Shown here in pieces: positions 1,881 through 61,239 of a DNA stretch of 64,000 bases (positions are counted from its first letter, which is position 1; each line of letters starts with the position of its first letter). The notes under the pieces were generated by a model. That model saw only the letters and a program-made list of their open reading frames with translations. It did not search any database and was not told where the DNA came from. Origin of the DNA: Candidatus Curtissbacteria bacterium (lineage in GTDB: Bacteria; Patescibacteriota; Microgenomatia; Curtissbacterales; GWA2-41-24); contig JACPEV010000009.1 in NCBI GenBank assembly GCA_016183325.1, positions 1,303 to 65,302 of the forward strand, in the 5' to 3' direction. A program made the translations under genes and the position numbers.

Positions 1881-2654
1881 ATGATAAATACATTGTTAGG
1901 TATCAAAAAAGAAATGTCGGCAAGATTCGATCGGTTTGGTCGACGACTGCCGGTGACAGAAATTTATGCCGAGCCCAACATAGTCGTTGTTCAAAAGGAT
2001 GGGAGAATCTTAATTGGAGCTGGGCAAAAAAAGAGAGCCAGAAAAACCGAGAATGCCTTTGTTCAGGCAGCCGGTTTTGCGCCAAGGCTGGTTAAAGAAG
2101 TAAAAGTTGATCAACAAGAAATCAAGCCGGGAACTAAAGTCGATGTATCCATATTTGGACCGGGAGACGAAGTCAAAATAACCGGAGTAACCAAGGGAAA
2201 GGGATTTACAGGCGTTGTCAAAAGATGGGGTTTTGCCGGAGGTCCGAAGACTCACGGACAAAGCGATCGTCATCGTGCACCAGGTTCAATCGGCCAAACC
2301 ACCACACCTGGCAGGGTTTATAAAGGCAAAAAGATGGCTGGCCATATGGGTGTAGCCAAATTAACAATTACGGGGCTTGAAGTCATAGAAGTGGATGCCA
2401 AAAGCAATCTACTTATTGTAAAAGGTTCGGTTCCTGGTGCCAGAAACGGTTATTTGGTAATCGAAAAAACGGGAAAAGTAAAGGGGTACACTCCGCCCCC
2501 TGAACCAAAAGAGGAGCCGGAAGAAGAAGTTAGATCAGAAAAGACTGCAACCGCTGAAAACGCTGAAAAGAACACTGAGAACACTGAAAATCCAGGAGGA
2601 TACCCCCGGAGTGAAGTCGAGGCGTTTCCTGGAAAACACCCCGGGGGTGAGTAA
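1881..2654 (+). CDS. rplC: 50S ribosomal protein L3 with ~45-aa C-terminal extension
   Basis: ...GKGFTGVVKRWGFAGGPKTHGQSDRHRAPGSIG... L3 core; extension ...ENAEKNTENTENPGGYPRSEVEAFPGKHPGGE. Confidence 0.95.
   Translation: MINTLLGIKKEMSARFDRFGRRLPVTEIYAEPNIVVVQKDGRILIGAGQKKRARKTENAFVQAAGFAPRLVKEVKVDQQEIKPGTKVDVSIFGPGDEVKITGVTKGKGFTGVVKRWGFAGGPKTHGQSDRHRAPGSIGQTTTPGRVYKGKKMAGHMGVAKLTITGLEVIEVDAKSNLLIVKGSVPGARNGYLVIEKTGKVKGYTPPPEPKEEPEEEVRSEKTATAENAEKNTENTENPGGYPRSEVEAFPGKHPGGE
2637..2649. repeat. In-frame palindrome caccccgggggtg (encodes HPGGE) in the rplC 3' end
   Basis: 17-nt acaccccgggggtgagt is identical to 17902-17918 in rplM; related cacccccggggtg at 48945 in purL. Confidence 0.6.
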
Positions 2655-4623: not shown

Positions 4624-4630
4624 TTTTTAC

Positions 4631-4701
4631 TGTCATTCTGGGGAGTGAAACGACTCCAGAATCAAAATACGAAAAAAGATTCTGGTCAAGCCAGAATGAC
4701 A
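4631..4701 (+). repeat. Inverted-repeat structured element, copy 2 (same TIRs as 541-660), 71 nt
   Basis: tgtcattctgg 4631-4641 and ccagaatgaca 4691-4701; starts 8 nt after the rplB stop; internal hairpins ggagt-gaaac-gactcc and tctggtcaagccaga. Confidence 0.6.
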
Positions 4702-4720
4702 ATAAACTAAAGGAGAAAAA

Positions 4721-5400: not shown

Positions 5401-5844
5401 ATGATAGTTACCGCTACAGCTAAAAATGTCAGATTATCGCCCGAAAAGGCTCGTCTCGTCGTGGCGCAAATAAAAAAAATGAAGCCTTCCTATGCGATTG
5501 CAATTTTAGATCATGTTCACAAATCTTCATCACCAATTCTAAAAAAGGTGATCAAATCTGCCATTGCCAATGCTAAGAATAATTTCAATTTGGATGAGAA
5601 AACACTTACCTTTAAAGAAATTTTAGTTGGAAAAGGCCCGGTTTTTAAAAGATATAGAGCCGTCGCCAGAGGTAGAGCCCATTCTATTTTAAAGCGAACA
5701 AGCAATATAAAAGTGGTTTTAGAAGGAGAAAAAACAAAAGAGGTATCAAAAGTATCACAGGTACCAGAAGTATCACAGGACAAATCAAATATACGAGAAC
5801 GTATTTTTGATAAATCGAAAAGTAAAGATCAAAAATCAAAATGA
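5401..5844 (+). CDS. rplV: 50S ribosomal protein L22 with C-terminal extension partly encoded by a dispersed repeat
   Basis: L22 core ...RYRAVARGRAHSILKRTSNIKVVLEG...; tail ...NIRERIFDKSKSKDQKSK overlaps the repeat at 5783-5846. Confidence 0.9.
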   Translation: MIVTATAKNVRLSPEKARLVVAQIKKMKPSYAIAILDHVHKSSSPILKKVIKSAIANAKNNFNLDEKTLTFKEILVGKGPVFKRYRAVARGRAHSILKRTSNIKVVLEGEKTKEVSKVSQVPEVSQDKSNIRERIFDKSKSKDQKSK

Positions 5845-5846
5845 CA
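5783..5846. repeat. 62-nt dispersed repeat, copy 1 (diverged), containing the TTTT(T/C)GAT-AA-ATCGAAAA palindrome
   Basis: Aligns to 6589-6648 and 14445-14504. Confidence 0.6.
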
Positions 5847-5943
5847 AACCTATATTTATTGTTAGACTCATCACTCATCACTTACTCGCCTCGCTTCGCT
5901 CGCGAAGCGGGTCACTCATCACTACCGACCGAAGGGAGGTCTT

Positions 5944-6588: not shown

Positions 6589-6648
6589 AAAAATCAAATA
6601 TACCAAAGCGTATTTTCGATAAATCGAAAAGCAAAAATCAAAATGACA
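6589..6648. repeat. 62-nt dispersed repeat, copy 2
   Basis: aaaaatcaaatataccaaagcgtattttcgataaatcgaaaagcaaaaatcaaaatgaca; near-identical to 14445-14504. Confidence 0.7.
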
Positions 6649-9167: not shown

Positions 9168-9542
9168 ATGGATCCAGTTGCTGACATGCTGACTATTATC
9201 AAAAATGGATATATGGCTAAAAAACCAGAAGTTTTTGTGACATATTCCAAGTTTAAACTTGCCATAGCAAGTATTTTGGAAAAAGAAGAATTTATTGGCA
9301 AGGTAGAAAAACAAGATGCCAAAATTAAAATTAGCCTCTTGTATCAAAATCAAAAACCCAAAGTTACACAGATCAAGAGAATTTCTAAATTGGGTCTTAG
9401 GATTTATACCAGAAGCAAAAACATAAAAAATATTAAAGGTGGAAAAGGTTTAGTCATTGTCTCAACATCCCAAGGCGTCATGAATGCAAAAGAAGCAAAA
9501 TCAAAAAATCTGGGAGGAGAGATCATCTGCCAATTATGGTAG
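9168..9542 (+). CDS. rpsH: 30S ribosomal protein S8
   Basis: MDPVADMLTIIKNG... S8. Confidence 0.9.
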   Translation: MDPVADMLTIIKNGYMAKKPEVFVTYSKFKLAIASILEKEEFIGKVEKQDAKIKISLLYQNQKPKVTQIKRISKLGLRIYTRSKNIKNIKGGKGLVIVSTSQGVMNAKEAKSKNLGGEIICQLW

Positions 9543-13941: not shown

Positions 13942-14076
13942 GCCTGTTACAATATTCGAATGTTTACGAATGAGAATAATCCGAATAAATCCGAATATTC
14001 AGTTACGAGTTTGAAATTGTACCCCATTGTCACATTAGGATAAATTCGGACTATTACTATTCGGATATATTAGAAT

Positions 14077-14444: not shown

Positions 14445-14504
14445 AAAAATCAAATATACCAAAGCGTATTTTCGATAAATCGAAAAGCAAAAATCAAAAT
14501 GACA
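14445..14504. repeat. 62-nt dispersed repeat, copy 3
   Basis: Near-identical to 6589-6648; followed by ttccattttccattttcaattttcca. Confidence 0.7.
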
Positions 14505-16989: not shown

Positions 16990-17480
16990 AACACAAAGTA
17001 TCAGGCCAAAAACTAGGGCGCGACACCAGCGGTAGAAAAGCCTTGTTAAGAAATTTGGCAAGTGAACTTGTTGCAAAAGGCGCAATTATTACAACCTTAG
17101 CAAAGGCTAAATTTGCGCGCCCTTACATAGAAAAACTTGTAACTTCAGCAAAGATTAATCGGCTCACGAAACACAGAAGTCTCGAATCGCGACTTACACA
17201 CCAAGCATTTATTAGACTCCAAAGTGAAATTGGCCCCGGTTTTAGAAGTAGGGCTGGAGGTTACACCAGAATTATAAAATTAGGCATCAGAAAAGGTGAC
17301 GCTGCTCCGCTTGCAAGACTGGAGTTTCTGCAATGGGAAAAGACCCCAACCGCTAAAGTGCAAAAGTCACCAAGAAAAACCATCAATCGGCGTAAATCCG
17401 CTATAAACTTGTCCCGAGCGCCACTAGTGAGCGAAGTCGAACTGAAGTCGAGGAATCAGCGCTCATCTGCGAAATTATGA
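16986..17480 (+). CDS. rplQ: 50S ribosomal protein L17 with C-terminal extension (GTG start)
   Basis: L17 core; basic tail ...KVQKSPRKTINRRKSAINLSRAPLVSEVELKSRNQRSSAKL. Confidence 0.85.
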   Translation: MKHKVSGQKLGRDTSGRKALLRNLASELVAKGAIITTLAKAKFARPYIEKLVTSAKINRLTKHRSLESRLTHQAFIRLQSEIGPGFRSRAGGYTRIIKLGIRKGDAAPLARLEFLQWEKTPTAKVQKSPRKTINRRKSAINLSRAPLVSEVELKSRNQRSSAKL

Positions 17481-17974
17481 AAAACGTTAAACCAAAAGAT
17501 ATAAAGCGAAATTGGCATTTACTTGATGCCAAAAATAAGATTTTAGGCAGACTTGCCTCAGAAATCTCTCTAATTTTAATGGGTAAAAACAAAAGTTATT
17601 ACACACCATATTTAGACACAGGAGACTATGTAGTTGTCATCAATGCAAAAGAAATTGTATTTTCTGGAAAAAAAGAAAGACAAAAACAATATTGGCATCA
17701 TAGCCAATATCCAGGAGGGATGCATGTAAAATCAGTTTCAGTCCTGAGAAATAAAAAACCAGAAGAGCTAATAAGACACGCAGTTGGCGGTATGATTCCA
17801 AAAACCAAACTTGGCAAAGATATGATGAAAAAACTTTTTATTTTTTCAAATAGTAATCATCCATATCAAGACAAATTTGCAACCACTGAAAAACCAGATG
17901 AACACCCCGGGGGTGAGTCAGGATCAAAGATGCATGCTAAATCGGGACCACCCCCAGCGGTTGCAATAAAATGA
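17477..17974 (+). CDS. rplM: 50S ribosomal protein L13 with C-terminal extension containing the HPGGE palindrome
   Basis: L13 core; tail ...KPDEHPGGESGSKMHAKSGPPPAVAIK. Confidence 0.9.
   Translation: MKNVKPKDIKRNWHLLDAKNKILGRLASEISLILMGKNKSYYTPYLDTGDYVVVINAKEIVFSGKKERQKQYWHHSQYPGGMHVKSVSVLRNKKPEELIRHAVGGMIPKTKLGKDMMKKLFIFSNSNHPYQDKFATTEKPDEHPGGESGSKMHAKSGPPPAVAIK
17904..17916. repeat. In-frame palindrome caccccgggggtg in the rplM 3' end
   Basis: Identical 17-mer to 2635-2651. Confidence 0.6.
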
Positions 17975-18438
17975 AACCAGAATCCAAAAACTCTTCGAGT
18001 CTGAGCCTCGGAGTCGAAGACCTCAGAGCCGGAGGCCAGAAATCAAAAACCAGCTATATCAGTGCTCATGGGAACAGGAAACAGGCAGTTGCCAGGATTA
18101 GGTTGTTTAAAGGAAAAGGCGAGACCGTTGTCAATGAAAAACCTATCGAAACATATTTCCCACAAGAAGTTGATAAAATTGTCTGGCAAAAACCCTTTTT
18201 AGTAACTAAATCGCAAGGCCAATACTATGCCACCATTAAAGTTAGTGGCTCTGGCAAAAGGAGTCAACTAGATGCCATTGCCCTTGGTATTTCAAGAGCT
18301 CTTGTCATGCAGGAAGAAAGTTTTCGCCCAATTCTTAGAAAAGCTGGTCTTCTAACTCGCGATTCCAGAAAAAAAGAACGCCGCAAATACGGAAGAGCAC
18401 AGAAGGCACGTAAAGGGAAACAAAGCCCCAAACGATAA
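17971..18438 (+). CDS. rpsI: 30S ribosomal protein S9 with N-terminal extension
   Basis: S9 C-terminus ...RKKERRKYGRAQKARKGKQSPKR; N-terminal ~25 aa encoded by a GC-rich near-palindrome. Confidence 0.85.
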   Translation: MKPESKNSSSLSLGVEDLRAGGQKSKTSYISAHGNRKQAVARIRLFKGKGETVVNEKPIETYFPQEVDKIVWQKPFLVTKSQGQYYATIKVSGSGKRSQLDAIALGISRALVMQEESFRPILRKAGLLTRDSRKKERRKYGRAQKARKGKQSPKR

Positions 18439-21671: not shown

Positions 21672-21734
21672 GCCTCAGCCAAAGGCTGATCGTCCTCTGG
21701 ACAAAACTGTCAGCCAAAGGCTGATCGTCCTCTG
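21672..21734. repeat. Tandem duplication of a 28-nt unit (tcagccaaaggctgatcgtcctctggac x2, 7-nt spacer)
   Basis: Exact copies at 21672-21699 and 21707-21734, adjacent to the tRNA-like fragment. Confidence 0.8.
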
Positions 21735-21766
21735 GACGAAACTGGAAACAACAAATCTTGCTAAAT

Positions 21767-25722: not shown

Positions 25723-25787
25723 AACAATCAATAATTCTTATTCGGATACATTGGGATTATTAATAATTCGGATAAATTCGTATTTAA

Positions 25788-29078: not shown

Positions 29079-29192
29079 GTAACTGTTCACCGTTACTGAC
29101 ACAACGCATATTGTTCGAGGCTGAAAGCCGAGAACTAAACTTCTCGCTCACGCTCGAAGAGTAATAACGTGTCAGCGATTGTGAACTCTTAC
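29079..29192 (+). repeat. 114-bp exact repeat, copy A (MITE-like; terminal inverted repeats gtaa-ctg-ttcac ... gtgaa-ctc-ttac)
   Basis: Identical base for base to 55393-55506; sits 10 nt upstream of dgkA. Confidence 0.85.
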
Positions 29193-29706: not shown

Positions 29707-30882
29707 ATGAAAAATACTTTTTTCATCAAAACCTTTGGTTGTCAGCAAAATTTAGCCGATTCCCAGCGGATTGCAAGCTACTATCTTGCTCGCGGTTACC
29801 GTCAGACCAACACTATGGAGTCGGCAAGTGAAATTGTTATCAACACGTGCATGATTCGTCAAACCGCAGAGGACAAAGTTACGGGTCTTGTTAAAAATAT
29901 CTTAAAACAATCAGCTCTCCGAGCCAGAGGCTCTCTGAGCCGGAGGCCCAAAATTGTCATCACGGGCTGCATGGTGGGCATGGCTGTTCGCGACGAAACT
30001 GGCAAGTATTTAAAAGCCCTAAGAAAAAGAATGCCTGAAGTCGACGAGTTTTTACCCCTTGAGGAAGTTGGTTTCGATTATCCTGCCCTAAGAAATGATG
30101 TTACACATAGCTGGGTCCCGATCTCAAACGGTTGCAACAATTTCTGCACCTTTTGTGTCGTGCCCTTCACACGTGGTCGGGAAGTATCCCGTCCATTTGA
30201 GGACATAATCTCAGAAATCAAAGAATTAGCCAGCATTGGCTGCAGGGAAGTTACCTTACTCGGTCAAAACGTCAATTCCTATGGAGCCGACTTAGTAAAA
30301 AACTCAAAAGGCTACAAATTGCCAAATGGTAGGCTAGTCAAACCGGTAATGGTCAAACACTTGGGTCGTTATCGTATTCCGACGTTGTTTCCATATCTTT
30401 TGGAAGAAGTTTGCAAAATCAAAGGCATTAAGATCGTTAAGTTTATTTCCTCAAACCCTTGGGATTTTTCAGACGAACTAATTGATGTAATCACCAAAAA
30501 TAAAAAAATCGACAGAAATTTACACTTAGCAGTTCAGTCAGGAGATGACGGAGTTCTTAAAAGAATGAATAGATGGTACACGAGAGAAGAATATATTAAT
30601 CTGGTTAAAAAAATTAAATCAAAAATCAAAGGTGCTCAAATATCAACAGATATTATTGTTGGCTTTCCAGGCGAGACGGAAGACCAATTTAAAAATATTA
30701 TCAAACTCGCCAAAGAAGCAAACTTTGCCTATGCTTATGTCTCCAAATATTCCCAACGTCCCAATACTGCTGCAACCAAAGCTTTTCCGGATGATATTCC
30801 CCATACTGAAAAAGAACGTCGCTTCCACATTGTTGATCAGCTCATCAACCACAAGGGCAATCCCCGCTCAGCAGTTCACTGA
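29707..30882 (+). CDS. MiaB/RimO-family radical SAM methylthiotransferase (no obvious C-terminal TRAM domain)
   Basis: N-terminal MTTase domain FIKTFGCQQN; radical SAM CNNFCTFCVVP. Confidence 0.8.
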   Translation: MKNTFFIKTFGCQQNLADSQRIASYYLARGYRQTNTMESASEIVINTCMIRQTAEDKVTGLVKNILKQSALRARGSLSRRPKIVITGCMVGMAVRDETGKYLKALRKRMPEVDEFLPLEEVGFDYPALRNDVTHSWVPISNGCNNFCTFCVVPFTRGREVSRPFEDIISEIKELASIGCREVTLLGQNVNSYGADLVKNSKGYKLPNGRLVKPVMVKHLGRYRIPTLFPYLLEEVCKIKGIKIVKFISSNPWDFSDELIDVITKNKKIDRNLHLAVQSGDDGVLKRMNRWYTREEYINLVKKIKSKIKGAQISTDIIVGFPGETEDQFKNIIKLAKEANFAYAYVSKYSQRPNTAATKAFPDDIPHTEKERRFHIVDQLINHKGNPRSAVH

Positions 30883-30967
30883 ATTCGAATGTATCCGAAT
30901 GTAATTACTCCGAATGAATCCTAATATTCGGATAAATTAGGATTATTTAAATTCGGATGTATTCGGA

Positions 30968-32305
30968 TCATCTCCACGTCGGAAGCCACATATATTTATC
31001 TATCGCAGCTACTTCAATCGGCCAACCAGAGGAAATTGGATAAAAATAGAAGAAAACAACAGCCACCAGAATTAAAAATATCAACACCAAATATTTCGCT
31101 CTACTTTTGTAAATTTGAAAAAGTGCCACTCCTAAAGCTATCGCCAAAAATGGAAGAGATGGAAGATAGTGGTGTAAAAAAAGTATCCTTGGGGTAAAAA
31201 CGAATGGTAGCCAAAAGATAAAGTATCCCAGAAGTATCAGTAAATATTTCTTTTCTCTTTCCGCAATCAACCGCCCTACAATATAAGAAATAGCCACTAA
31301 TCCTGCCCAAAAAATTAAAGGATTTCCAAGCGCATAAATATAACCGGCTTTTTCTCCCGCTTCGCCGCGAGGCGAGCGAGGCGAGCCGTATTGCTCGTAA
31401 GAAAAATACACGGGGCGTATATCAAGCGCCCAAGGGCAAAAAGTTTTTGGGCCACTGAGCCCTTTGGGAGCACAAAAAATCGGTGTCGTTGCGTACGAAT
31501 GCTCAAGATCTCCTCGACTTTGATACCACCAAATTTGTTGGTGCAAGTTATAAAATTGTTTAAAAGTGTAACCTTGAAGCCAAAATTGGCTGTAAGACAG
31601 AAGGTAAATCACTCCCGGGATAATAAATAAACTCAAAATTTTAGGGCTCACTAGCTTCTGCTTGAAATCATCCCAGAAGATATAAATAAAAAGAGCCAAT
31701 ATTGCCCAGAAACCTGTCCATTTAGTTGCAATCGAAAAACCTAAAAATAGACTCGTTAAAAATAAGAGAACTGATCTTTTCTTAACACCTCCGAGGTGGC
31801 TGAAGGACTCCTCGGAGGTGGACCTTACATAAAGAGCAGCAAAAATAAACGACATTAATACAAAAAATGTCACAAAAACGTCATTCATCGTAATGCGGCT
31901 CATGACAAATGTTAAATTTTCAAACGCTATAACAGTGGCAGCAAAAATCGCAACCACCGGCCCAAATAACAAATTAGCAAGAACAAAAGTTGCGCCAATT
32001 ATGCCTGTGCCAAAAATAGCACTTGGCAACCTCCACCCAAATGGCACGTCACCGAAAATCTTGATCGACCCCGCCTGAATCAACTTTGCCAGCGGTGGAT
32101 GCAGCCAATCATAAGCGGTTCCCTCTTTAGGTGCTGGAGAAAAAGGATCATAAGGCGCCGGATTATTGTCAGCGTAAGCTTTCGCCGTCACCGCATGATA
32201 AACTTCGTCAAAGTAGTAGTGACTGGGCTCTGTCAATCGGAATAAACGGATCGCCAAGGAAAAAACTGTCAAAAATATAAGAAGAACAAAAATTATTCTA
32301 TTCAT
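30968..32305 (-). CDS. GT-C fold glycosyltransferase, PMT/GT39-like membrane protein
   Basis: N-terminal YYFDEVYHAVTAKAY...YDWLHPPLAKLIQAGSIKIFG (DE motif); contains an in-frame palindromic insert at 31786-31820. Confidence 0.7.
   Translation of the reverse strand: MNRIIFVLLIFLTVFSLAIRLFRLTEPSHYYFDEVYHAVTAKAYADNNPAPYDPFSPAPKEGTAYDWLHPPLAKLIQAGSIKIFGDVPFGWRLPSAIFGTGIIGATFVLANLLFGPVVAIFAATVIAFENLTFVMSRITMNDVFVTFFVLMSFIFAALYVRSTSEESFSHLGGVKKRSVLLFLTSLFLGFSIATKWTGFWAILALFIYIFWDDFKQKLVSPKILSLFIIPGVIYLLSYSQFWLQGYTFKQFYNLHQQIWWYQSRGDLEHSYATTPIFCAPKGLSGPKTFCPWALDIRPVYFSYEQYGSPRSPRGEAGEKAGYIYALGNPLIFWAGLVAISYIVGRLIAEREKKYLLILLGYFIFWLPFVFTPRILFLHHYLPSLPFLAIALGVALFQIYKSRAKYLVLIFLILVAVVFFYFYPISSGWPIEVAAIDKYMWLPTWR
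31786..31820. repeat. In-frame inverted-repeat mini-element cacctccgaggagtcc...cacctcggaggtg (minus-strand orientation) inside the GT39-like gene
   Basis: Same arms as the element at 41806-41887 in miaA; encodes STSEESFSHLGGV. Confidence 0.7.
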
Positions 32306-34149: not shown

Positions 34150-36078
34150 ATGGATTTAATGCTATTAACTATTTTAGTGATTATAATTACGGTTTTTTTT
34201 GGATATGCTATTTTAAGTCTTTTCGCAACGCAATTGAGATTCAACGAAAAAATAGCTTCTAGTTTTATAATTGGAATCTCGTTATATTCATTATTAACCT
34301 TTTTGATTGCGAATGTCTTTAAGTTAAGTTTTTTAACTATTTTTTTCTCTACAACAATTGTTGTCTTATTTGCGGTAGTAATTTTGGTAAAAAGAAAATC
34401 CTATTATTTCAAAGATTTTTTAACATCTCATGAGCAAATAAAAAATTTTTTGAAAAACAAGTATTTACTATTCACTTTTATTTTTTTCACCATTCTTTTT
34501 TCTAAAATTTTTTACCAAACTTTCGTTCCTGAAAAAGCCGGCTTTTATGCAGGTTCACTAGGATTTTGGGGTGATGGCGCTTTGCATCTCACATTGATTA
34601 ACTCCTTTTTTAAAGGAGATAATTTTTGGCCCCAACAACCACTTTTTGCAGGTGTTAAATTAAGCTATCCGTTTTTACCGGACTTCACCAGTAGTATTTT
34701 CCTAAAGTTGGGAAGTTCAGTGCGCACTGCTATAGCACTTCCTTCTGTACTATTACTTTCCGCATCAATCTTGCTTCTCTACTCGATTTTCCATCAAATA
34801 ACTAAATCTAAGCTTGCCGCTTCTCTAGCAATCTTCATAATATTTTTCCTTGGCGGTTTAGGTTTTATCTACTTCTTCGAGGATTTGGTCAGGACCAATT
34901 TCGCATTTTCTACATTTGCATATCCTCCAAGAGAATACACATCGATGGGAAACGAGAAAGGTATCCACTACATTAATCTAATTACATCTCCTATAGTTTC
35001 TCAAAGAGCCTTTTTATTTGGTTTTCCTCTGATTTTGGTAATTTATATGGTCTTAAGAGAGGCTTTGGAAAAGTTAGACGTAAAACAATTTATTTTCGCT
35101 GGTCTATTAGTAGGTGTTCTGCCATTTATACACAGTCACACTCTTCTGACCTTGGGAATTGCGTTGCCTGTATTTGCTTTAGTTAACCTAATTAATAGGC
35201 CAAAGTCCGAAATAAAAAAGCTCTTTTTATTGTGGACCATTTTTGGAATAATCGCTGCTGCTCTAATTGTCCCACAACTTTTATTGTTTTTTCCCCGGGA
35301 CATCTCGGTTAACACTCTGCGGTTTCAATTTGGCTGGATGGCTCATGTTAAAAATGACAATATTTTTTGGTTTTGGATCAAAAATACTGGCCTTTTAATA
35401 CCTTTAATTATATTGTCTCCAATAGTTTTAGGAAAACAGAAATTTATCAAACTCTTTAAGTTTTATTTGCCATTTTTGGGAATTTTCATTGTTGCAAATT
35501 TTATTATATTCCAACCCTTAGAATACGATAACAGTAAAGTTTTTAACTATTGGTATATTTTTTCCGCACCGCTTGCTGCAACAGTAATTATAAACTTTTT
35601 AAAGAGGAATTCACTGTTTAAAATTATTGGGGTGGTTCTTTTTATCGTCCTTATCTTATCAGGTTTTTTAGATGTTTGGCGCTTGAATAATTATCAAGAG
35701 AACAGAATTCTAATGTTTGATAATGAAAGTATTAAACTTGCTGATTTTGTTTCTATTCATACTGAACCAAGATCAATTTTTGTTACGGCCATTCAACACA
35801 ATCATTCTGTCTTAGCTCTTGCAGGAAGAAGGGTTTTAGTTGGTTACACTGGATGGTTGTGGACTTACAGTATTAACTATGGTCCACGTGAGCAAGATGT
35901 CAGAATGATCTATCAAGGGGGCAATCTATCCCAAAACTTACTTAATAAATATAGCGTTAATTATCTTGTTATCGGGCCAGTAGAGAGTTCGCAGTTTCAA
36001 ATAAATGAACAATTTTTCGAGCAAAATTTCGCCCGTATTTACTCAACGCCTGCGTATCGAGTTTATAAAATATCATGA
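34150..36078 (+). CDS. Large polytopic membrane protein, paralog family member 1 (642 aa)
   Basis: Shares N-terminal W.DG.H....SF.KGDNFWPQQPLFAG..LSYPFL and C-terminal LAGRRVLVGYTGWLW...GPREQDV motifs with 37455-39251 and 39294-41201. Confidence 0.7.
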   Translation: MDLMLLTILVIIITVFFGYAILSLFATQLRFNEKIASSFIIGISLYSLLTFLIANVFKLSFLTIFFSTTIVVLFAVVILVKRKSYYFKDFLTSHEQIKNFLKNKYLLFTFIFFTILFSKIFYQTFVPEKAGFYAGSLGFWGDGALHLTLINSFFKGDNFWPQQPLFAGVKLSYPFLPDFTSSIFLKLGSSVRTAIALPSVLLLSASILLLYSIFHQITKSKLAASLAIFIIFFLGGLGFIYFFEDLVRTNFAFSTFAYPPREYTSMGNEKGIHYINLITSPIVSQRAFLFGFPLILVIYMVLREALEKLDVKQFIFAGLLVGVLPFIHSHTLLTLGIALPVFALVNLINRPKSEIKKLFLLWTIFGIIAAALIVPQLLLFFPRDISVNTLRFQFGWMAHVKNDNIFWFWIKNTGLLIPLIILSPIVLGKQKFIKLFKFYLPFLGIFIVANFIIFQPLEYDNSKVFNYWYIFSAPLAATVIINFLKRNSLFKIIGVVLFIVLILSGFLDVWRLNNYQENRILMFDNESIKLADFVSIHTEPRSIFVTAIQHNHSVLALAGRRVLVGYTGWLWTYSINYGPREQDVRMIYQGGNLSQNLLNKYSVNYLVIGPVESSQFQINEQFFEQNFARIYSTPAYRVYKIS

Positions 36079-36100: not shown

Positions 36101-37463
36101 ATGCGTACAACTTTATTCACCATTTTGCTGTTGTTGATTACAATTTTAGGTTTAATTCTACGATTTTTAGATTATGACAAATTCCCTCCATTTGATGCCA
36201 CTAAGGATGAATTCTTTTATTCTTGGGCAGGGATGTCTTTAATTCAAACGGGTACTCCAAAATCTTGGTCAATATTTAACGCATATCCAGATGGAGAACT
36301 TGTTTATAAATGGGGTACATGGTATAGGTTAGTTTCTCCTTGGTTAGATAAACCTCCGTTATATTCTTTAATTACTGGTTCATGGGTTTTATTAAATGGT
36401 GCAAGAGATCTATTCGATGTACGTCTATCCATCTTGAGAGTTATCCTTATTTTTTAAAGTTTTTTCACTATTTTCTTAACCGGTATATTAGCTAAAAAAA
36501 TTTTCTCGCCAACAGTCGGAATTCTTGCCTCATTGCTATATGCATTCACTCCGACCATAGTAATATCTAATCGTCTTTCACTTACTGAAAACTTACTAAC
36601 ACCGCTCTCTCTTCTTACTCTTTGGTTTTTCTCCCAAAATCAACAGGGGATATGGTCAAAAATCAAACCTTGGGTCGTCGGATTGACTTGCGGCTTGGCT
36701 CTCATCTCCAAAAATATCGCCATCACCTTGCCAGCTGTCTTAATCTGGTTGCTTTTCGAGAAAAAACAATGGCGTAATTTATTAATCATTGCTGCATTTT
36801 CTTTATTCTTTGCCTTAATCCATCCCCTTATCGGTCTTTATTACAATTGGGATCTTTATCTTGCAGTCTTGGCCGATTATGGAAAGGCCCACAGTCTGGG
36901 ATTACCCAAGCTAGTTACTACTCTCTTCAGATTCCCCGTCATTGGCCATAAAGAAGCCATTTTCCTAGATGGATCCATACTCGCAGGCTATATTCTTTTT
37001 TTTCAGTTCGCCGTTTTGGCTAAAAGGCAAATTAGAAGATATGAATCTTAAACTACTGTTAGCTTTTCCCTTTGCTACTCTGGTTCTCCTTTCAGAATTA
37101 GAAGGCGGAAAGACCTTTTTCGGTTGGCACCTATTTCCTCTATTTCCGTTTCTCTCGATACTTCTGGCCAAAGCCTTTTACGATCTCTGGCAAAATCCCA
37201 ATTTATTAAAATCATTGTTTTTCTATCTAATTCTCGGCTCATCAACGGTCCGCTTTTTTCTACTCTTGACACTCCAATCTCAAAAATCATGGCAATGGAT
37301 TTTAGGGACGTTGTTGGTAATTTTAATTGTTGGATTTTTCCCGAAAACTGCCTATCGACGAATTGTCTTACTGGCTTACTTTATGGTGTTTTTCGTTGTC
37401 AATGTTTTAGTAGTCATCAATCTAAACCAAATTTATCCCAGCTATCCGCAACCCTTAGAGTAA
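36101..37463 (+). pseudogene. Disrupted PMT/GT-C-like glycosyltransferase gene (in-frame TAA at 36455-36457, then a frameshift near 36970-37050)
   Basis: ORFs 36101-36457 and 36533-37051 are in the same frame, separated by one stop with continuous sense on both sides. Third piece 36969-37463 is in another frame; T8 homopolymer at ~36998. Confidence 0.55.
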
Positions 37464-39251
37464 GAGAACTAAGTATTTCTGATTCTGGTAGACTTTTTTG
37501 AACTGTTGTGGAGCTTCGAAGTTATATTTATCGACGGGAATTACTATGTATTTAACAGGTACCTCCAAATTACCAATCTGCGAAAAATTACCAGCTAAAA
37601 TTTGATTAACTTCTTGTTCCCGCTTACCATAATCAATTCCATGAACCCAAAGATGTCCGGGATAACCGATGTAAACTAAACGTCCAGCCAATCCAGAAAT
37701 TGGGTTGACAGGAGTTGGTTCAACTATAAACACGTCACGAGTATTGGTGTTTGATTTTGCCCAATTGGCAAGATCAATATCCCAATTGTCATAAAGTACG
37801 TATCTATTTTTTAATTGCAATTCTAAAGATAAAGATCCGCTGGCGATAGAGATCAGGATAATTACTCCGGCAGTGACCTTTGCGACTAGTCCCTTTTGGG
37901 CAAGTTTTGCAAGCAAAAATCCAGTCAAAATCACAAAAAACAAGAAAGACCACGATAAAAGCTTTATATTATCCCAATCCCAAGGCTGAAAAATCACCAA
38001 ATTGGCGATTATAAAAACCACAAAAGCAGGAATAAAGAATATTTTTTGATCACGCTTTACAAACCAAAACCCCAGTATTGCCAAAGGAATTGTCAAAAAC
38101 GTATTTTTAAGCCAAAAGACTAGAATATTTTCATCCCCATTTTGCCAACCCAGACTTGTATGCAAGAATTGACTAACTTGATGATTTGTAAAAAACAAAA
38201 ATAAAAAGGGGACCATCGTCGCAACAGCCACCAAACCCATTGAAGAAAAATCAACAAATGCTTTTTTGAAATTTTGTCGCATTGACCAGACAGCAAAGAT
38301 TGCACTAACAATTGAGAAGAAAATAAAAGAGTGTGTATGCCAGAAAGGCAAAGATCCCAAAATCAGACCGTTAATCAACAAAAGCTTTCTATCCTTTGGC
38401 CCGAAATATTCCATGAAATTTGAAAACATCAAAAGCCCTAAGAAAAGCCCCGGCAAAAAACTTCTCTCAGACAATACAAGTCCTGTCAAGATATTGCGAA
38501 AGTATAAATTATATTGGGCATTATCAGTATAATCTTTTGTCAAAAATTGCCAAAAGCCTCCACCTTGAGTACCCCATTCATTTAAAAAGAAAATTACGCC
38601 AACACCCCAACCCAAAAATAAAATCAAAAGTGAGATCACAAAACCTATATCCGAAGTAAATTTTCTACAAATCTGATAGAAGAGAACCAAAAATCCTATC
38701 AAAAACAAAATCTGTGGTAAGGAAAATGCTAAATTGAAATTTAAACCGGCGATTTTTAGTGTTGACGAAAGTAAATCATTGGCAAATGGATAAACTAAAA
38801 TGCGGCCTGCAAAAAGAGGATTCTGGATTGGAAACTCACCGGTTGTCAGTCGTGAAGTATAGGCGGCATGCAGAGCCGAGTCTCCATACATCCCACCGCC
38901 ACCAGTTTTTAATCCAACGCTTGTTGCAGCCAGGGTTTGGGTCAGCCAAATATAAGCCAATAACATCGTTGTAACTGCGGTGACTGCCAAAAATACTGGC
39001 GAAATTTCGCCAAAATCGTTCTTCGGTTTAAACTTCACAAAAATTGTCAATGCCAAGATTCCTGCCACAATCAGTGCTACAATAACCCCATTGAATAAAC
39101 CTAGAAAAAAAGAAAAAAGCAGCGCAAGCTCGCCAAAAACAAAAAGACCTAAAGCCGGTGCCACCAATAACCTGTATGGCCAGCCAAAATTTTTAGGCAA
39201 AATAGGGACAAATCCTATCCCCAAGGCCGCAATAGCCAAAAGCAAAAGCAT
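37455..39251 (-). CDS. Large polytopic membrane protein, paralog family member 2 (598 aa)
   Basis: Motifs PIQNPLFAGRILVYPF and LAGRLVYIGYPGHLWVHGIDYGKREQEV. Confidence 0.7.
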   Translation of the reverse strand: MLLLLAIAALGIGFVPILPKNFGWPYRLLVAPALGLFVFGELALLFSFFLGLFNGVIVALIVAGILALTIFVKFKPKNDFGEISPVFLAVTAVTTMLLAYIWLTQTLAATSVGLKTGGGGMYGDSALHAAYTSRLTTGEFPIQNPLFAGRILVYPFANDLLSSTLKIAGLNFNLAFSLPQILFLIGFLVLFYQICRKFTSDIGFVISLLILFLGWGVGVIFFLNEWGTQGGGFWQFLTKDYTDNAQYNLYFRNILTGLVLSERSFLPGLFLGLLMFSNFMEYFGPKDRKLLLINGLILGSLPFWHTHSFIFFSIVSAIFAVWSMRQNFKKAFVDFSSMGLVAVATMVPFLFLFFTNHQVSQFLHTSLGWQNGDENILVFWLKNTFLTIPLAILGFWFVKRDQKIFFIPAFVVFIIANLVIFQPWDWDNIKLLSWSFLFFVILTGFLLAKLAQKGLVAKVTAGVIILISIASGSLSLELQLKNRYVLYDNWDIDLANWAKSNTNTRDVFIVEPTPVNPISGLAGRLVYIGYPGHLWVHGIDYGKREQEVNQILAGNFSQIGNLEVPVKYIVIPVDKYNFEAPQQFKKVYQNQKYLVLLL

Positions 39252-39293: not shown

Positions 39294-41201
39294 ATGGGCT
39301 CAATTTTTTTGCTTCTCTCCTCATTTATCTCTGGCCTGGCAACTTTAGAATTAACCCAGATTGTTTTGCCTTGGCCAGTGCGTGCTGTTTTTGCCACCGT
39401 TTTAGGTCTTATTATTAATACTTTAGCCATCTTTTTAGTTTCTCTATTTGTAAAATTTAATCTGATCAGTGTCCTGGTAACAATCTTTTTAATTTCTTTG
39501 CCTTCATTAATTTATTTAATTAAAAAATCTTCGTTTCAAAATATTATTGAAGATAATCTGGATATTAAAAAGAATTGGCAGATAATTTTAGGATTTTCGA
39601 TCATTACAATTTTTTTAATTTTAATTTTTAGCAAATCTATTTTCGTCAATTCCAGTGGCATCATCGCAGGCAACCGTCTCGTTTGGACCGATTGGCCAGT
39701 CCACATAGCCATCATTACATCGTTTGTGAAAGGTGATAATTTCCCGCCCCAGAACCCATTATATGCAGGCCAACTTATCTCCTATCCTTTCCTCTCAAAT
39801 TTTCTCTCAAGTGTCTTGCAGATTTTAGGCGCTAGCCTAAAAACCTCTCTGGTTCTTCCGGGCATACTTCTTGGACTGTCGGCAATAACAACCGTCTATT
39901 TTTTGGGGATTCTCTTAACAGCCCAAAAACAGATGGCCATCACAGGACTTTTGATCGGCGTTTTTTGGGGAGGATTGGGATTTTTATATTACGCTGTCGA
40001 CCTGCTTTCATCACCCAATTTTATTGAAACACTCAAGTTTCCTCCAATAGAGTACACTTTTTATCATCTCAAAAATTTATGGTTTTTCTCATTTTTGTAC
40101 TCTGAACTTTTACCTCAAAGGGCTTTCCTCTTTGGCCTGCCAATGTTTTTTATGGCACTGATACTCTTGATTCTTGGATTATCCCACCATAAAAAGACCT
40201 ATTTACTAGTCGCTGGTTATTTGGTTGGCATCATGCCCTTTTTCCATATGCATTCTTATCTTAGCTTCTTACTTTTCAGTGTTATTTTTATTCCGCTTGC
40301 GCAAGTTACCAGTTTAAAAAAAAATGGCCAAACTTCGACCAAAAGACAACTAATCTATGTCATTATTTATTTTGCCCTGCCCATCATTGGTCTTGGTTTA
40401 ATTCAACTCCCGTTTTTGCTTTCAATTAATTTAAATCAAACTTTTGGTTTTAACTGGGGCTGGATGAAAGAGCAAGAAAACTTTTTTTTATTTTGGTTTA
40501 AAAATACCGGATTCTTCTGGCCTCTATGGCTCTTTGCAATTTTCAAAACCAAATTAAATCAACTTGTCAAAAATGTGGCCATTGCCTCAGCAATTTTATT
40601 TATACTACCTAATATTTTTCGCTTTGCTCCCTGGCCCTATGACAATCTAAAAATTATGACTTATTGGTATTTAATCGGCGCTTTTTTAGTTGCCATTGCC
40701 CTAGTAGAAATCTACAAAAAAGGTCTTTCGGGGAAAATTTTGGCCATCGCTCTTTTTATTTCTCTGACTGCATCAGGAGCAATCGAGGTTTTTCGAATTT
40801 TCAATACCCCAAAAACTCAAATTCCTCTTTGGTCCTCAAAGGACATCGAACTTTCAAACTCTATCATTAAAAATACCGAAGCAGAGTCAGTAATCTTAAC
40901 CGCCGCCGTCCACGATCATCCCGTAACTGCCCTTGCTGGCAGAAAAATCATCATTGGTTTTCCCGGCAACGCCTGGTCATGGGGACTTGCCGATTGGTCA
41001 CAAAGAGAAGCAGATGTTAGAACCATCCTCAAGGGTGATGCCATTTATGCTCCTTATCTTCTTGCCAAATATAAAGTCAACTATGTCCTGATCAGTCCTC
41101 GAGAAAGATATTTTGAACCGGGTTTAAATGAACAGTACTTTCAAGAGAAATTTACCTTTGTCATTGGCGATTCTGATTACAAATTGTTTAAAGTCCCATG
41201 A
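39294..41201 (+). CDS. Large polytopic membrane protein, paralog family member 3 (635 aa)
   Basis: Motifs PPQNPLYAGQLISYPFL and LAGRKIIIGFPGNAWSWGLADWSQREADV. Confidence 0.7.
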   Translation: MGSIFLLLSSFISGLATLELTQIVLPWPVRAVFATVLGLIINTLAIFLVSLFVKFNLISVLVTIFLISLPSLIYLIKKSSFQNIIEDNLDIKKNWQIILGFSIITIFLILIFSKSIFVNSSGIIAGNRLVWTDWPVHIAIITSFVKGDNFPPQNPLYAGQLISYPFLSNFLSSVLQILGASLKTSLVLPGILLGLSAITTVYFLGILLTAQKQMAITGLLIGVFWGGLGFLYYAVDLLSSPNFIETLKFPPIEYTFYHLKNLWFFSFLYSELLPQRAFLFGLPMFFMALILLILGLSHHKKTYLLVAGYLVGIMPFFHMHSYLSFLLFSVIFIPLAQVTSLKKNGQTSTKRQLIYVIIYFALPIIGLGLIQLPFLLSINLNQTFGFNWGWMKEQENFFLFWFKNTGFFWPLWLFAIFKTKLNQLVKNVAIASAILFILPNIFRFAPWPYDNLKIMTYWYLIGAFLVAIALVEIYKKGLSGKILAIALFISLTASGAIEVFRIFNTPKTQIPLWSSKDIELSNSIIKNTEAESVILTAAVHDHPVTALAGRKIIIGFPGNAWSWGLADWSQREADVRTILKGDAIYAPYLLAKYKVNYVLISPRERYFEPGLNEQYFQEKFTFVIGDSDYKLFKVP

Positions 41202-42271
41202 AAAGAGTGCTTGTAATTTATGGCCCTACCGCAACCGGCAAGACTGATCTGGCTATTTCTTTAGCCAAAAAATTTAATGGAGAAATAATTTCTGCAGATT
41301 CTAGACAAGTCTATAGAGGTTTGGATATTGGCACAGGCAAAGTATCAATTCAAAAGTTAAGCGATCCAGCAATTCAGAAGTTCGAAAGCTTCTGGGTTGT
41401 AGATGGTGTCAGAATTCACGGTTTCGATCTGGTAGGATCACCCGTTCACGAACCCGGCTTGCAGAATTATTCCAAGCCGGGTTCGGAAGCTTTGGTTCGA
41501 TTTTCCGCCGCTGATTTCTTAAAATTTGCATCTACTACGATGATTCGAATCATTGAACAAAACAAATTACCTATTGTAGTAGGCGGGACGGGATTTTATA
41601 TTAAGACTTTAACTAGCGGTGTTGATACAATCGGAATTCCGGCAAATCCCGTACTACGTCGACAACTTGCTGATTTGTCAGTTGGCGAGCTTTATCAAAA
41701 ATTCGAATCGATCGATCCAAATCGCGCCAGATCAATGAACAGATCGGATCGTGCTAACCCTCGCCGGCTGATTCGTGCCATTGAAATCGCAATTCATAAG
41801 TCGTTCACCTCCGAGGAGTCCCCTTCGACTACTTCGACTACGCTCAGTACAAGTTCACTCAGGGCAAGCGAGCCCACCTCGGAGGTGAACACGAGCTACC
41901 AACTACCCGCTACCAGCTACTTACTCCTCGGTCTAACCGCCCCCAACAATTTCCTCTACCAGCGAGCCGATTGGTGGCTCGATCAGCAGCTTGCCCATGG
42001 CATGATCGAAGAAGTCCAAAAATTACTCGATCACAAAATTAACCCAATTTGGCTTGATAGCTTAGGACTTGAATATCGCTGGCTTTCTCGATACTTACTG
42101 AGGAAGATAAGTTTTAAAGAAGCTGTCGCCAGACTTAAAGGCGACACTCACAGTTTTATCAGACGCCAAAAAACCTGGTTTAGAAAGTTTAAAAACATCC
42201 AACTTTTTGATATCTCAAAAGACAATTGGCAAAAAGAGTTAGAAAAGAAACTTCAGCTTTGGTATCATTAA
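41198..42271 (+). CDS. miaA: tRNA dimethylallyltransferase with ~35-aa low-complexity in-frame insertion
   Basis: GPTATGKTDLAI P-loop, ADSRQVYRGLDIGT; insertion ...SFTSEESPSTTSTTLSTSSLRASEPTSEVNT... encoded by a palindromic element. Confidence 0.85.
   Translation: MKRVLVIYGPTATGKTDLAISLAKKFNGEIISADSRQVYRGLDIGTGKVSIQKLSDPAIQKFESFWVVDGVRIHGFDLVGSPVHEPGLQNYSKPGSEALVRFSAADFLKFASTTMIRIIEQNKLPIVVGGTGFYIKTLTSGVDTIGIPANPVLRRQLADLSVGELYQKFESIDPNRARSMNRSDRANPRRLIRAIEIAIHKSFTSEESPSTTSTTLSTSSLRASEPTSEVNTSYQLPATSYLLLGLTAPNNFLYQRADWWLDQQLAHGMIEEVQKLLDHKINPIWLDSLGLEYRWLSRYLLRKISFKEAVARLKGDTHSFIRRQKTWFRKFKNIQLFDISKDNWQKELEKKLQLWYH
41806..41887. repeat. In-frame inverted-repeat mini-element cacctccgaggagtcc...(53 nt)...cacctcggaggtg inside miaA
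   Basis: Perfect 11-bp inverted arms cacctccgagg / cctcggaggtg; internal tandem cttcgacta x2; same arms as 31786-31820. Confidence 0.7.
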
Positions 42272-43307: not shown

Positions 43308-43374
43308 AAACAGCTTCTCGCCAATTTTGAAAAATTACCCATTTCTGGTAAAATATATGTTGCTTTTGGGAAGA

Positions 43375-43715
43375 AGAACGATCGCCCCGTACCATACGGT
43401 ACGGGGAGGAAAGTCCAGACAGCAGGAAGCAAAGGATCCCGCGTAAGCGGGGACTAGAAATAGCTGGTGTCTTGGCTCTTTACCCGCATGCGGAGCCAAG
43501 AACAGGTCTTGAGTTTACAAGACTTGAGAGCAACAGAGACGAGCGGGAGTGAAACGGGCAATCCTACTTGCTGCAACCCAGATTTGAACCGATCTAGCCA
43601 TAGGCTGGTCAGTCTTTGGCTAATGACCATGCTTCCGGGAGGTTCAGAGTAGGGGCATCCTGTTAAAAACCAGGACGAAGTGGCTAATTCGTCATTTCGA
43701 GATAGATGATCGTAA
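43375..43715 (+). ncRNA. rnpB: Probable RNase P RNA
   Basis: ccccgtacc-ata-cggtacgggg hairpin followed by GGAGGAAAGTCCAG (P4 5'-strand-like); ...GCAACAGAGAC...GTGAAACGGGC...; ~340 nt of hairpins with only a spurious 61-aa ORF. Confidence 0.5.
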
Positions 43716-43815
43716 AAACCAAGTCTGACTTGGTAAAACAGAATCTGGCTTACATCTTCCCAAAAGCATTTTTAAAGAATTTGACTAATTTTGTCAAAGG
43801 TGTAATCATATTTGT

Positions 43816-49202: not shown

Positions 49203-50016
49203 AGTTTGTATTTTAAGAACCGACGGTACCAATTGCGATGAAGAGCTCTTTTATGCCTTTGAGAAATTTGGCGCCGCTCCCCAGTATGTCCACGTCAATC
49301 AGCTAAGAGCTAAAAGCAAAAAGCTAAAGGCATTCCAGATTCTGGCCCTTCCCGGCGGTTTTTCTTATGGAGATGATGTCGCCTCCGGCAAAATTCTGGC
49401 TGTTGAGTTGATTTCATACCTCAAAGATCAACTTCAGGAATTTATCAGCAAAAATGGACTTGTGATCGGCATTTGTAATGGTTTTCAAACACTCGTGCGA
49501 ACTGGCCTTTTGCCATTTGGCCATTTAGGCAAGATGGAGGCAACTCTTGCCCAAAACGAAAGCGGTCATTTTGAATGTCGCTGGATCAGATTAAAAATCG
49601 AAAAAAGCCGCTGCCCCTTTTTAAATCTCTATCTCAAACCGGGTTTGCCTACGTATTCCAAACCCGGTTTGGATAATGGTTTGGAAAATGGCGTCTTTGA
49701 ATTGGCCGTTAATCATGGTGAAGGTCGCTTTTTCGCCAACAATGAAACAATTGCAACAATGGAACAATCAAATCTCGTTGTGTTTCGCTACGTTGATGGA
49801 AAAGGTAAACCAACTGGGCATTATCCCGAGAATCCCAATGGTTCAATCAACGCTATCGCTGGAGTCTGTGATCCAACCGGTAGAATCTTAGGCTTGATGC
49901 CCCATCCCGAAAAATTCGTCGACATTACTCAATACCCAAACTGGCGCCGGGGAAAAGTGACCGAACCCCATGGAGCCTTTATCTTTAAACAACTGATAAG
50001 ATTTGCCACTGTCTGA
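49192..50016 (+). CDS. purQ: Phosphoribosylformylglycinamidine synthase, glutamine amidotransferase subunit
   Basis: MKPKVCILRTDGTNCDEE...; GIC catalytic cysteine; overlaps the purL stop. Confidence 0.85.
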   Translation: MKPKVCILRTDGTNCDEELFYAFEKFGAAPQYVHVNQLRAKSKKLKAFQILALPGGFSYGDDVASGKILAVELISYLKDQLQEFISKNGLVIGICNGFQTLVRTGLLPFGHLGKMEATLAQNESGHFECRWIRLKIEKSRCPFLNLYLKPGLPTYSKPGLDNGLENGVFELAVNHGEGRFFANNETIATMEQSNLVVFRYVDGKGKPTGHYPENPNGSINAIAGVCDPTGRILGLMPHPEKFVDITQYPNWRRGKVTEPHGAFIFKQLIRFATV

Positions 50017-55392: not shown

Positions 55393-55506
55393 GTAACTGT
55401 TCACCGTTACTGACACAACGCATATTGTTCGAGGCTGAAAGCCGAGAACTAAACTTCTCGCTCACGCTCGAAGAGTAATAACGTGTCAGCGATTGTGAAC
55501 TCTTAC
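55393..55506 (+). repeat. 114-bp exact repeat, copy B
   Basis: Identical to 29079-29192; 51 nt upstream of purP-1. Confidence 0.85.
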
Positions 55507-61187: not shown

Positions 61188-61239
61188 GATCACTGAGGCT
61201 AATAAAACATTCAGTGTTTCCAGTGGTTGCTTAAGTTCA

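Follow-up and report, generated by a model that had tools for sequence, protein, structure and literature searches.

Very small, probably mobile palindromic repeats in genes of Candidatus Curtissbacteria

Intragenic palindromic mini-repeats are already known as a kind of genomic element. In fungal mitochondria, GC-rich palindromes known as GC clusters are scattered in AT-rich genomes and sometimes lie within reading frames, and the small dispersed repeats (SDRs) of cyanobacteria, attributed to Elhai et al. in 2008, are said to be very small and palindromic, their mobility reportedly having been deduced from filled versus empty orthologous sites. Rickettsia palindromic elements (RPEs), of about 100-150 bp, reside in frame in unrelated housekeeping genes (Ogata et al. 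2000, as outlined in PMC10969869). REPINs are doublets of REP (repetitive extragenic palindromic) units that form hairpins; they are extragenic by definition and are tied to a REP-associated tyrosine transposase (RAYT, IS200-like) gene (Bertels & Rainey 2011, PMC3116915). Here we describe a GC-rich palindrome that is repeated within the ribosomal protein genes rplC and rplM and the purine-biosynthesis gene purL of one Candidatus Curtissbacteria genome, in a 64-kb window of contig JACPEV010000009.1 (the window being the whole stretch of DNA analysed, to which all copy counts refer). We propose that it represents a family of very small, non-autonomous palindromic repeats, probably mobile, that is found in certain Candidatus Curtissbacteria genomes. 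The literature that we covered, incompletely, contained no report of palindromic repeats or repeats of the miniature inverted-repeat transposable element (MITE) type in the Candidate Phyla Radiation (CPR), Patescibacteria or Curtissbacteria.

The window has a GC content of 39%, and its SecY protein is 75-82% identical to those of approximately 30 metagenome-assembled genomes of Candidatus Curtissbacteria, with a best match of 82% among the GTDB representative genomes searched; this places the window in Candidatus Curtissbacteria, its species being without a near counterpart among those representatives, and an identical MiaA protein is recorded at NCBI for Curtissbacteria. Ribosomal proteins (r-proteins) were compared over about 30 related Curtissbacteria loci. 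For the purine-biosynthesis genes we used the syntenic relative L131, whose PurL and PurQ proteins are 70-73% identical to those of the window (PurQ 73%). Shuffled sequences served as null models, and motif counts were tested with dinucleotide-preserving shuffles.

Anatomy and enrichment of the repeat

An exact repeat of 18 nt, AACACCCCGGGGGTGAGT, is present at 2635-2652, at the end of rplC, and at 17901-17918, in the tail of rplM. It contains the 17-nt string ACACCCCGGGGGTGAGT that an earlier note on this DNA had reported as identical in the two genes; the identity is borne out, with the rplM copy at 17902-17918 as given there and the rplC copy at 2636-2652, one base away from the 2635-2651 of the note. 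Pfam assigns the open reading frames (ORFs) at 1881-2654, 17477-17974 and 46293-49202 to L3, L13 and PurL, respectively, in agreement with the gene calls made earlier, and the translations at the repeat read ..FPGKHPGGE followed by the stop codon in L3, ..PDEHPGGESGS.. (given also as ..PDEHPGGESGSK..) in L13 and ..TDTPGVGK.. in PurL. The 13-nt core of the repeat, CACCCC-S-GGGGTG, is palindromic about an odd centre, and its middle base changes from one strand to the other. The purL site had been presented as a one-base variant at 48945-48957; it is indeed there, in the peptide context described, but it occupies 48944-48956 and, read as the reverse complement, matches the 13-mer core exactly. 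An assembly artefact is excluded, since L3 and L13 proteins identical to these, with the motif at the DNA level, recur in Logan assemblies built independently from several SRA runs.

Several unrelated exact repeats of 16-18 nt occur in the window at a chance-like level, so that the pair formed by L3 and L13 is by itself only modestly surprising; for the same reason the 16-mer GGCGTTTCCTGGAAAA, common to the rplC spacer and position 56944, was dropped as a signal, its sharing being at the level expected by chance for 16-mers. It is the enrichment of the family as a whole, and not the L3/L13 pair, that makes the case solid. When up to three mismatches are allowed, the 17-mer has three matches against 0.06 expected, and the 13-mer with up to two mismatches has nine strand-matches against 0.31 expected, a count equalled in none of 100 shuffles. 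The broader pattern CACCYCSGRGGTG (up to one mismatch), defined post hoc from hits already seen, occurs at seven sites against 0.03 expected: three of the CCCC type, in rplC, rplM and purL, and four of the CCTC type, at 41806 and 41875 in miaA and at 31786 and 31808 in a PMT-like glycosyltransferase gene. At the level of the window, the motif is therefore far above the random frequency that the earlier note had taken as an argument against its own proposal. Chance coincidence, or a restriction-modification target that is otherwise avoided, is barely credible as an explanation: other exact repeats of 16-18 nt do arise by chance in the window, but the sites number seven to nine where shuffles give 0.03-0.3, and CCCGGG, for which depletion had been raised as a question, is not depleted (9 against 6.9 expected), with CCGGG (34 against 36.0) and CCCGG (38 against 39.9) behaving alike.

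The 17-mer is the right arm of a larger hairpin doublet of about 50 nt in all, with the layout [CACCCC-C-GGGGTG]-spacer-[CACCCC-G-GGGGTG]. In its general form, X-C-X' ... X-G-X', each arm is self-palindromic and the two 13-mers are mutually reverse-complementary. The spacer between the 13-nt arms varies from 6 to 56 nt and the length of the element from about 35 to 90 bp, the units measuring 35-88 nt and typically 51. As single strands, the doublets form one long stem that is closed by the two arms, which pair over 13 GC-rich bp, with predicted folding energies of -21.6 to -40.8 kcal/mol in the window and of -32 to -47 kcal/mol on other contigs (folding z of -3.6 to -8). Long GC-rich stems reach 0.94 per 10 kb in the window versus 0.05 in shuffles. 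A first scan for palindrome pairs found four, and a looser re-scan again four, the rplC pair replacing the purQ pair, which gives five distinct pairs (295/336, 2601/2637, 31786/31808, 41806/41875 and 49635/49659); each of 20 shuffles held 0 or 1 pair. The arm variants are compensated, pairing being kept on both arms (CACCCC/GGGGTG, CACCTC/GAGGTG and CACTCC/GGAGTG), and variant families with the same two-arm layout (CACCTC.., GAGGTC.. and CAAACC..) are located in miaA, the PMT-like gene, purQ and the spacer between tuf and the S10 gene. The order of the centre bases, C in the left arm and G in the right arm, is seen in five of six independent families, which is not significant.

The complete family-A doublet lies at the 3' end of rplC, at 2601-2654 of the + strand (-28 kcal/mol, z -3.7), and consists of a degenerate left arm, TACCCCCGGAGTG (2601-2613), a spacer (2614-2636) and the right arm CACCCCGGGGGTG (2637-2649), with 36 nt from arm to arm. 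It encodes YPRSEVEAFPGKHPGGE and provides L3 with its final 17 codons; the conserved AGT that follows the right arm overlaps the TAA stop codon (2652-2654). In the rplM tail a single right arm, AACACCCCGGGGGTGAGTCAGG (17901-17922, + strand; ..EHPGGESG..), shares 22 identical nt with the right end of a doublet found in a clpC-type gene of another locus, L092, and on its own forms only a weak hairpin (z -0.6). This arm sits in the loop of an outer inverted repeat (17877-17888 / 17955-17966, + strand; arms TTGCAACCACTG and CAGCGGTTGCAA, 92% complementary) that spans nearly the whole C-terminal extension of L13. The single family-A arm of purL, CACCCCCGGGGTG (+ strand), is read in the other frame and adjoins a 19-aa insertion.

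Family B is represented by a doublet in miaA (41806-41887, + strand; -40.8 kcal/mol, z -6.2), formed by CACCTCCGAGGAG, a 56-nt spacer and CACCTCGGAGGTG and encoding ..FTSEES...EPTSEVN.., and by another in the PMT-like gene (31786-31820, - strand), recognized by the pair scan and by folding, which encodes ..STSEESFSHLGGV... A second hairpin insert of miaA, at 41449-41485 (+ strand), is a plain 13-bp hairpin made of CGAACCCGGCTTG, an 11-nt loop and CAAGCCGGGTTCG, and encodes ..HEPGLQNYSKPGSE... The pair search also identified the purQ doublet (49635-49671, + strand), in which CAAACCGGGTTTG and CAAACCCGGTTTG flank a spacer and which encodes LKPGLPTYSKPGL, and the tuf-S10 doublet (295-348; -36.8 kcal/mol, z -7.9), with arms GAGGTCCGACCTC and GAGGTCGGACCTC. 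A different palindrome, TCTTCGAGTCTGAG-C-CTCGGAGTCGAAGA, lies in the N-terminal extension of S9 (17992-18020, + strand; ..SSSLSLGVEDLRAG..). The window thus holds ten palindromic-repeat sites, nine of them within the doublet families; nine of the ten are inside coding sequence, the copy at 295-348 being the only intergenic one and all the others lying in frame.

Familiar functions were also considered for the hairpins and rejected. As a Shine-Dalgarno mimic, GGGGGTGA would be too far upstream of rplD, its last base standing at 12 nt from the ATG, and the remaining copies lie within genes; a terminator is discarded as the hairpins have no T-run after them. In the window no Rfam family reached its gathering score, and at 2500-2760 the only matches were at the chance level, with E values of at least 0.5, which rejects a known RNA family or ribozyme; the conserved core sequence of a hammerhead is absent, as judged by eye.

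Copies in other genes, empty sites and strain variation

When metagenome contigs were scanned for the 17-mer, 43 loci were returned, most of which are single hits in unrelated and often GC-rich DNA, in about the number expected by chance. The full doublet, CACCCCCGGGGTG-spacer-CACCCCGGGGGTGAGT, occurs at seven low-GC loci that represent four distinct sequences, with arm spacings of 36, 42 or 45 nt, all of them multiples of three. It is in frame in the gene for a ClpC-type AAA+ protein (L092 and identical contigs; ..EHPRGEVKVLPGKHPGGESG..), in genes for two UvrD-family helicases (L108; TPGV...TPGV, the doublet being complete in one only) and in that for trigger factor (L121; DTPGVGSGRQQGNTPGVS), and a further full doublet lies in an unassigned ORF of L098. 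The closest named relatives of the ClpC host are Curtissbacteria, and its copy is identical to the rplC copy at 47 of 51 nt (92%), spacer included. Together with L3, L13, PurL, PurQ, MiaA and the PMT-like protein in the window, the in-frame hosts therefore include ClpC, UvrD-like helicases and trigger factor elsewhere. Viral contigs held no family-A or family-B doublets, a protein-level census gave no candidates with the 59-aa composite of the encoded peptides, and the 30-aa L3 tail, used as query in an exhaustive HMMER search, produced no match.

The element is read in two frames, as HP(R/G)GE, the frame of L3 and L13, and as TPGV, that of purL, trigger factor and UvrD; its third forward frame, read from the sequence, holds a stop codon; the use of two frames indicates that the conserved entity is the DNA and not the peptide. 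Selection for the peptide HPGGE as a tail or turn in r-proteins, with DNA identity as a by-product, would suit the common frame of L3 and L13 and the aptitude of Pro-Gly for forming turns. This explanation is largely refuted by the second-frame usage and we regard it as very improbable, for the same DNA yields TPGV in purL, trigger factor and UvrD, a sister family is intergenic, synonymous positions are identical across 18 nt, and HPGGE is missing from the L3 and L13 of every relative compared.

Comparison with the relatives reveals empty sites. The 13-mer is absent from all of the approximately 30 related r-protein loci and none of their L3 or L13 proteins carries the HPGGE tail, so that a tail shared by relatives, the other outcome that the earlier note had considered adverse, was not encountered. 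All the L3 proteins of the relatives have long, strongly variable K/E-rich tails, and most of the L3 extension is therefore not derived from the element; their L13 proteins mostly end in ..DKFK, and a few have tails in ..VARK or ..VITK that resemble the ..VAIK of the window. The suggestion that the extensions stem in part from palindromic insertion consequently holds for the last 17 codons of L3 and for about six codons of L13, and the remainder of both extensions has other origins, some of it coming from other repeats. Against L131, the window purQ has 51 extra nt (17 aa) precisely at the doublet, and purL has 57 extra nt (19 aa) adjoining the arm; where the window has the family-A arm, the L131 purL gene carries a different palindrome, TCCGCCAGCGGGCGGA. 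In the PMT-like gene about 20 extra codons coincide with the doublet when it is compared with the PMT of L131, which is itself only 39% identical. The occurrence of the same doublet in frame in unrelated Curtissbacteria genes and the empty sites in orthologues support the insertion of an element that the earlier note had inferred.

The insert in the ClpC loop is missing in a relative of 76% identity and present in one of 88% identity, where 50 of 51 nt are identical and the flanks are conserved too; in other lineages this loop holds different inserts, some of them with TSEV or TPGV signatures. MiaA is hypervariable in length after RAIEIA, the region of the family-B doublet, where many relatives carry TSEESKPTSEV, a short family-B doublet, and the hairpin at 41449-41485 matches an insertion of about 30 aa found in only some MiaA relatives. 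Recent turnover is indicated by two miaA alleles, taken from different samples, whose DNA is 100% identical save for a 69-bp in-frame indel at the palindromes; this indel is flanked by a direct repeat of 27 nt in which the right arm is included.

This last case bears on the possibility that the palindromes are made locally and without transposition, in that hairpin-prone stretches in permissive loops would expand and become alike by replication slippage, by template switching within a strand (quasi-palindrome correction) and by gene conversion, similar sequences in different genes then being due to convergence or ectopic conversion. The 27-nt direct repeat that bounds the strain indel, the different palindromes that the same loops hold in different species (the purL site and the ClpC loop), the co-variation of all four half-arms, as expected of templated correction, and the lack of a visible transposase in the window all agree with such an origin. 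It is a serious rival, but rather unlikely as the whole story, since it fails to predict a spacer shared between unrelated genes and species: the rplC copy and that in the ClpC gene of another organism agree at 92% over 51 nt, arms and spacer included, and the same arms recur in trigger factor and UvrD.

We consider it improbable that the 13-mer acts in cis, either as the site of a dimeric DNA-binding protein or as an mRNA hairpin for processing, stability or pausing that is kept only where the protein can accommodate it. A 13-bp odd-centred palindrome does resemble chromosomal organiser sites such as parS, matS and the Noc-binding sites, copies lie near the 3' ends of genes in two ribosomal operons, and the ClpC copy is well kept between diverged genes. 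A single binding protein, on the other hand, would not explain several families that differ in sequence and share one architecture; no copy occurs at orthologous positions in about 30 relatives, the sites arrive with inserted coding sequence instead of being overlaid on conserved sequence, and the hairpins have neither an Rfam match nor a subsequent T-run.

Under the reading that we prefer, that of a family of small mobile repeats, copies would land in, or be generated in, many genes, and in a genome that is about 90% coding only those would persist that have a length divisible by three, use one of the element's open frames and are located in permissive loops or termini. The rplC doublet would then be a full copy that has become the end of the protein, the single arms of rplM and purL would be decayed or partial copies, and the doublets of miaA, purQ, the PMT-like gene and the one intergenic spacer would represent sister families. 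The spread may have occurred by transposition, for instance by an enzyme of the HUH/Y1 type acting on single-stranded hairpins as for REPINs, and the inserts may mostly be neutral passengers.

Some observations weigh against this proposal. The 27-nt direct repeat at the miaA indel fits slippage or recombination as well as it fits transposition. Neither a clear target-site duplication nor a defined insertion boundary was found in ClpC, PurQ and PurL, where the genes compared are 70-76% identical at the protein level and the boundaries ambiguous, and no transposase or HUH domain was detected among the 40 window ORFs scanned. The conservation of 50 of 51 nt in the ClpC copy, between genes of 88% identity, may point to selection acting on this sequence rather than to a neutral passenger, but the evidence is weak (P about 0.015) and the flanks are well kept there too. 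Finally, the doublet loci were retrieved through the motif search itself, so the A...AGT that flanks them reflects ascertainment bias.

A bolder interpretation, which we put forward tentatively, is that the doublets represent a so far undescribed class of mobile hairpin elements in CPR bacteria, ultra-small at about 50 nt, adapted to coding sequence and a major source of lineage-specific insertions and terminal extensions. Such adaptation would reside in two of the three forward frames being open and encoding turn-forming Pro-Gly peptides; the interpretation would also cover the r-protein extensions (L3 C-terminus, L13 C-terminus and S9 N-terminus), and the driving enzyme or copying mechanism might be one with no earlier link to such repeats.

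Nested palindromes and further repeats

The doublet spacer of L098 contains a palindrome, CCTGCCTGCCGGCAGGCAGG, that is present elsewhere in the same locus. In the L3 gene of a relative, L039, this palindrome stands alone and adds LPAGRQG, and in L026 it is split by a further palindrome. The outer L13 arm, TGCAACCACTGAA, recurs at the 3' end of purE (61154-61230) and in the L13 tail of L008; because a 12-mer match is near chance, the likeness between L13 and purE is suggestive only. The S9 palindrome is missing from the S9 of about 25 relatives, and a copy of 83% identity lies in a different gene of L092.

Direct repeats were also observed in the r-protein genes. The L3 tail (2566-2591) and the N-terminal extension of L4 (2739-2764) share a 26-nt direct repeat of 81% identity (…AACACTGAGAACACTGAAAAT…) that gives TENTEN-like peptides, and the L13 tail of L008 also has a TENTEN stretch. 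An exact AT-rich repeat of 60 bp (…CCAAAGCGTATTTTCGATAAATCGAAAAGC…) is found at 6589-6648 and 14445-14504, with a partial copy at 5800-5847, in intergenic spacers of the r-protein cluster and ahead of the ORFs with starts at 5944, 6766 and 14566, and could represent a promoter, a leader or a further repeat family. Upstream of the ORF starting at 5944 there is, in addition, a GC-rich hairpin, CGCTTCGCTCGCGAAGCG, with flanks TTACTCGCCT…GGGTCACT (5892-5909), and the 84% identity of this region over 58 nt to positions 1-60 of L092 suggests another shared repeat family. Between rplB and rpsS, an inverted repeat with ends TTTACTGTCATTCTGG…CCAGAATGACAATAAA (4626-4706), the left end of which has an 18-nt copy at 539-556, has the look of a further small element bounded by terminal inverted repeats, and L092 has a similar end pair, ACTGTCATCC…GGAATGACAG, at 9374-9446.

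An exact direct repeat of 114 bp occurs in two intergenic regions: the copy at 29079-29192, for which Rfam gave no match, lies upstream of a diacylglycerol-kinase gene, and that at 55393-55506 upstream of a purP-like (DUF1246/DUF1297) gene. Two purP-like paralogues (DUF1246 + DUF1297, ATP-grasp fold) are located in the purine-biosynthesis cluster, at 55558-56571 and 57854-59194, and the N-terminal region of the second, of about 70 aa, holds a hairpin of the CCCCGTACC…GGTACGGGG type, which makes its annotated TTG start doubtful. Arrays of the motifs ATTCGAAT, ATCCGAAT and ATTCGGAT make up AT-rich quasi-palindromes at intergenic positions 1682-1725, 13951-14076, 25740-25783 and 30882-30968, with a similar array in another Curtissbacteria contig (L115, 5380-5418); Logan contigs with rplC start about 190 nt upstream of the gene, near the array at 1682-1725. 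A tandem duplication with a period of 35 nt (TCAGCCAAAGGCTGATCGTCCTCTGGAC…) lies at 21675-21745, in a region without a confident ORF.

A class A RNase P RNA candidate was located at 43366-43767, scoring 78 bits against an Rfam gathering score of 100 (E 4e-24) and spanning 402 nt for a model of 367 positions. One of its hairpins, CCCCGTACCATACGGTACGGGG (43385-43406), has near-copies at 389-410 and around 58033-58055, and the ribozyme gene may thus carry a repeat-derived hairpin too. ARAGORN found no tRNA gene in the 64 kb, although a large r-protein cluster is included, and there was no Pfam match for a 119-aa ORF between tuf and rpsJ (701-1060) or for the ORFs of 598-642 aa at 34150-36078, 37455-39251 and 39294-41201.

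Significance and comparison with known systems

The genomes of CPR bacteria, or Patescibacteria, are seen as streamlined, and their protein insertions and r-protein extensions are usually treated as lineage-specific adaptations. Some of those extensions consist of repeated palindromic DNA that is also present in ClpC, helicases, trigger factor and enzymes of purine synthesis, that varies between close strains and that is missing from sister species. The repeats thus offer a concrete and testable source of protein-length variation in CPR bacteria, with the caution that not every CPR-specific r-protein extension need be functional, and they would carry the Rickettsia phenomenon of selfish DNA within genes over to a phylum that is very distant. 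They can be used as strain-level markers. The very stable GC-rich hairpins may also affect assembly; Logan contigs end near repeat-rich spots.

Regarding the systems introduced above, the GC clusters of fungal mitochondria offer a parallel in their GC-rich palindromes within an AT-rich genome, some of them in reading frames, but they are organellar and unrelated in sequence. The cyanobacterial SDRs are said to share with the Curtissbacteria repeats their tiny palindromic nature, filled and empty sites, nested insertions and occasional intragenic copies, the differences being in taxon and sequences. An iterated palindrome of the HIP1 type, or a restriction target, differs from the repeats described here, since the counts of CCCGGG, CCGGG and CCCGG are near expectation. 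As in MITEs, there are terminal inverted repeats, the 13-nt arms being exact reverse complements; no parent autonomous insertion sequence with the same ends was found in the window.

The likeness to REPINs is found in the two short inverted palindromic units with a spacer, which are predicted to form a hairpin in single-stranded DNA or mRNA, in the doublet being the apparent unit, with singlets that look like remnants, and in the several families per genome (PMC3116915). REPINs are, in contrast, extragenic (PMC3116915), and nine of the ten Curtissbacteria sites are inside coding sequence; REPINs are moreover tied to a RAYT, and no RAYT-type domain was found in the 40 ORFs scanned of the window.

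RPEs, in the account given in PMC10969869, are likewise repeated palindromic DNA residing in frame in unrelated housekeeping genes of a bacterium with a small genome, add a peptide at permissive positions and comprise several sequence families. According to the same source, they measure about 100-150 bp, against about 35-90 bp, typically 51, for the Curtissbacteria element, and are recognized by a conserved peptide per family, whereas the Curtissbacteria DNA is read in two frames. The self-palindromic 13-mer doublet is not described for RPEs, the two are likened by their palindromic nature and placement and not by sequence, and the host belongs to the CPR/Patescibacteria and not to Rickettsia. 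What sets the Curtissbacteria repeats apart from the known systems is the architecture of the 13-mer doublet, the very small size and the residence in the termini of r-proteins of an ultra-small genome.

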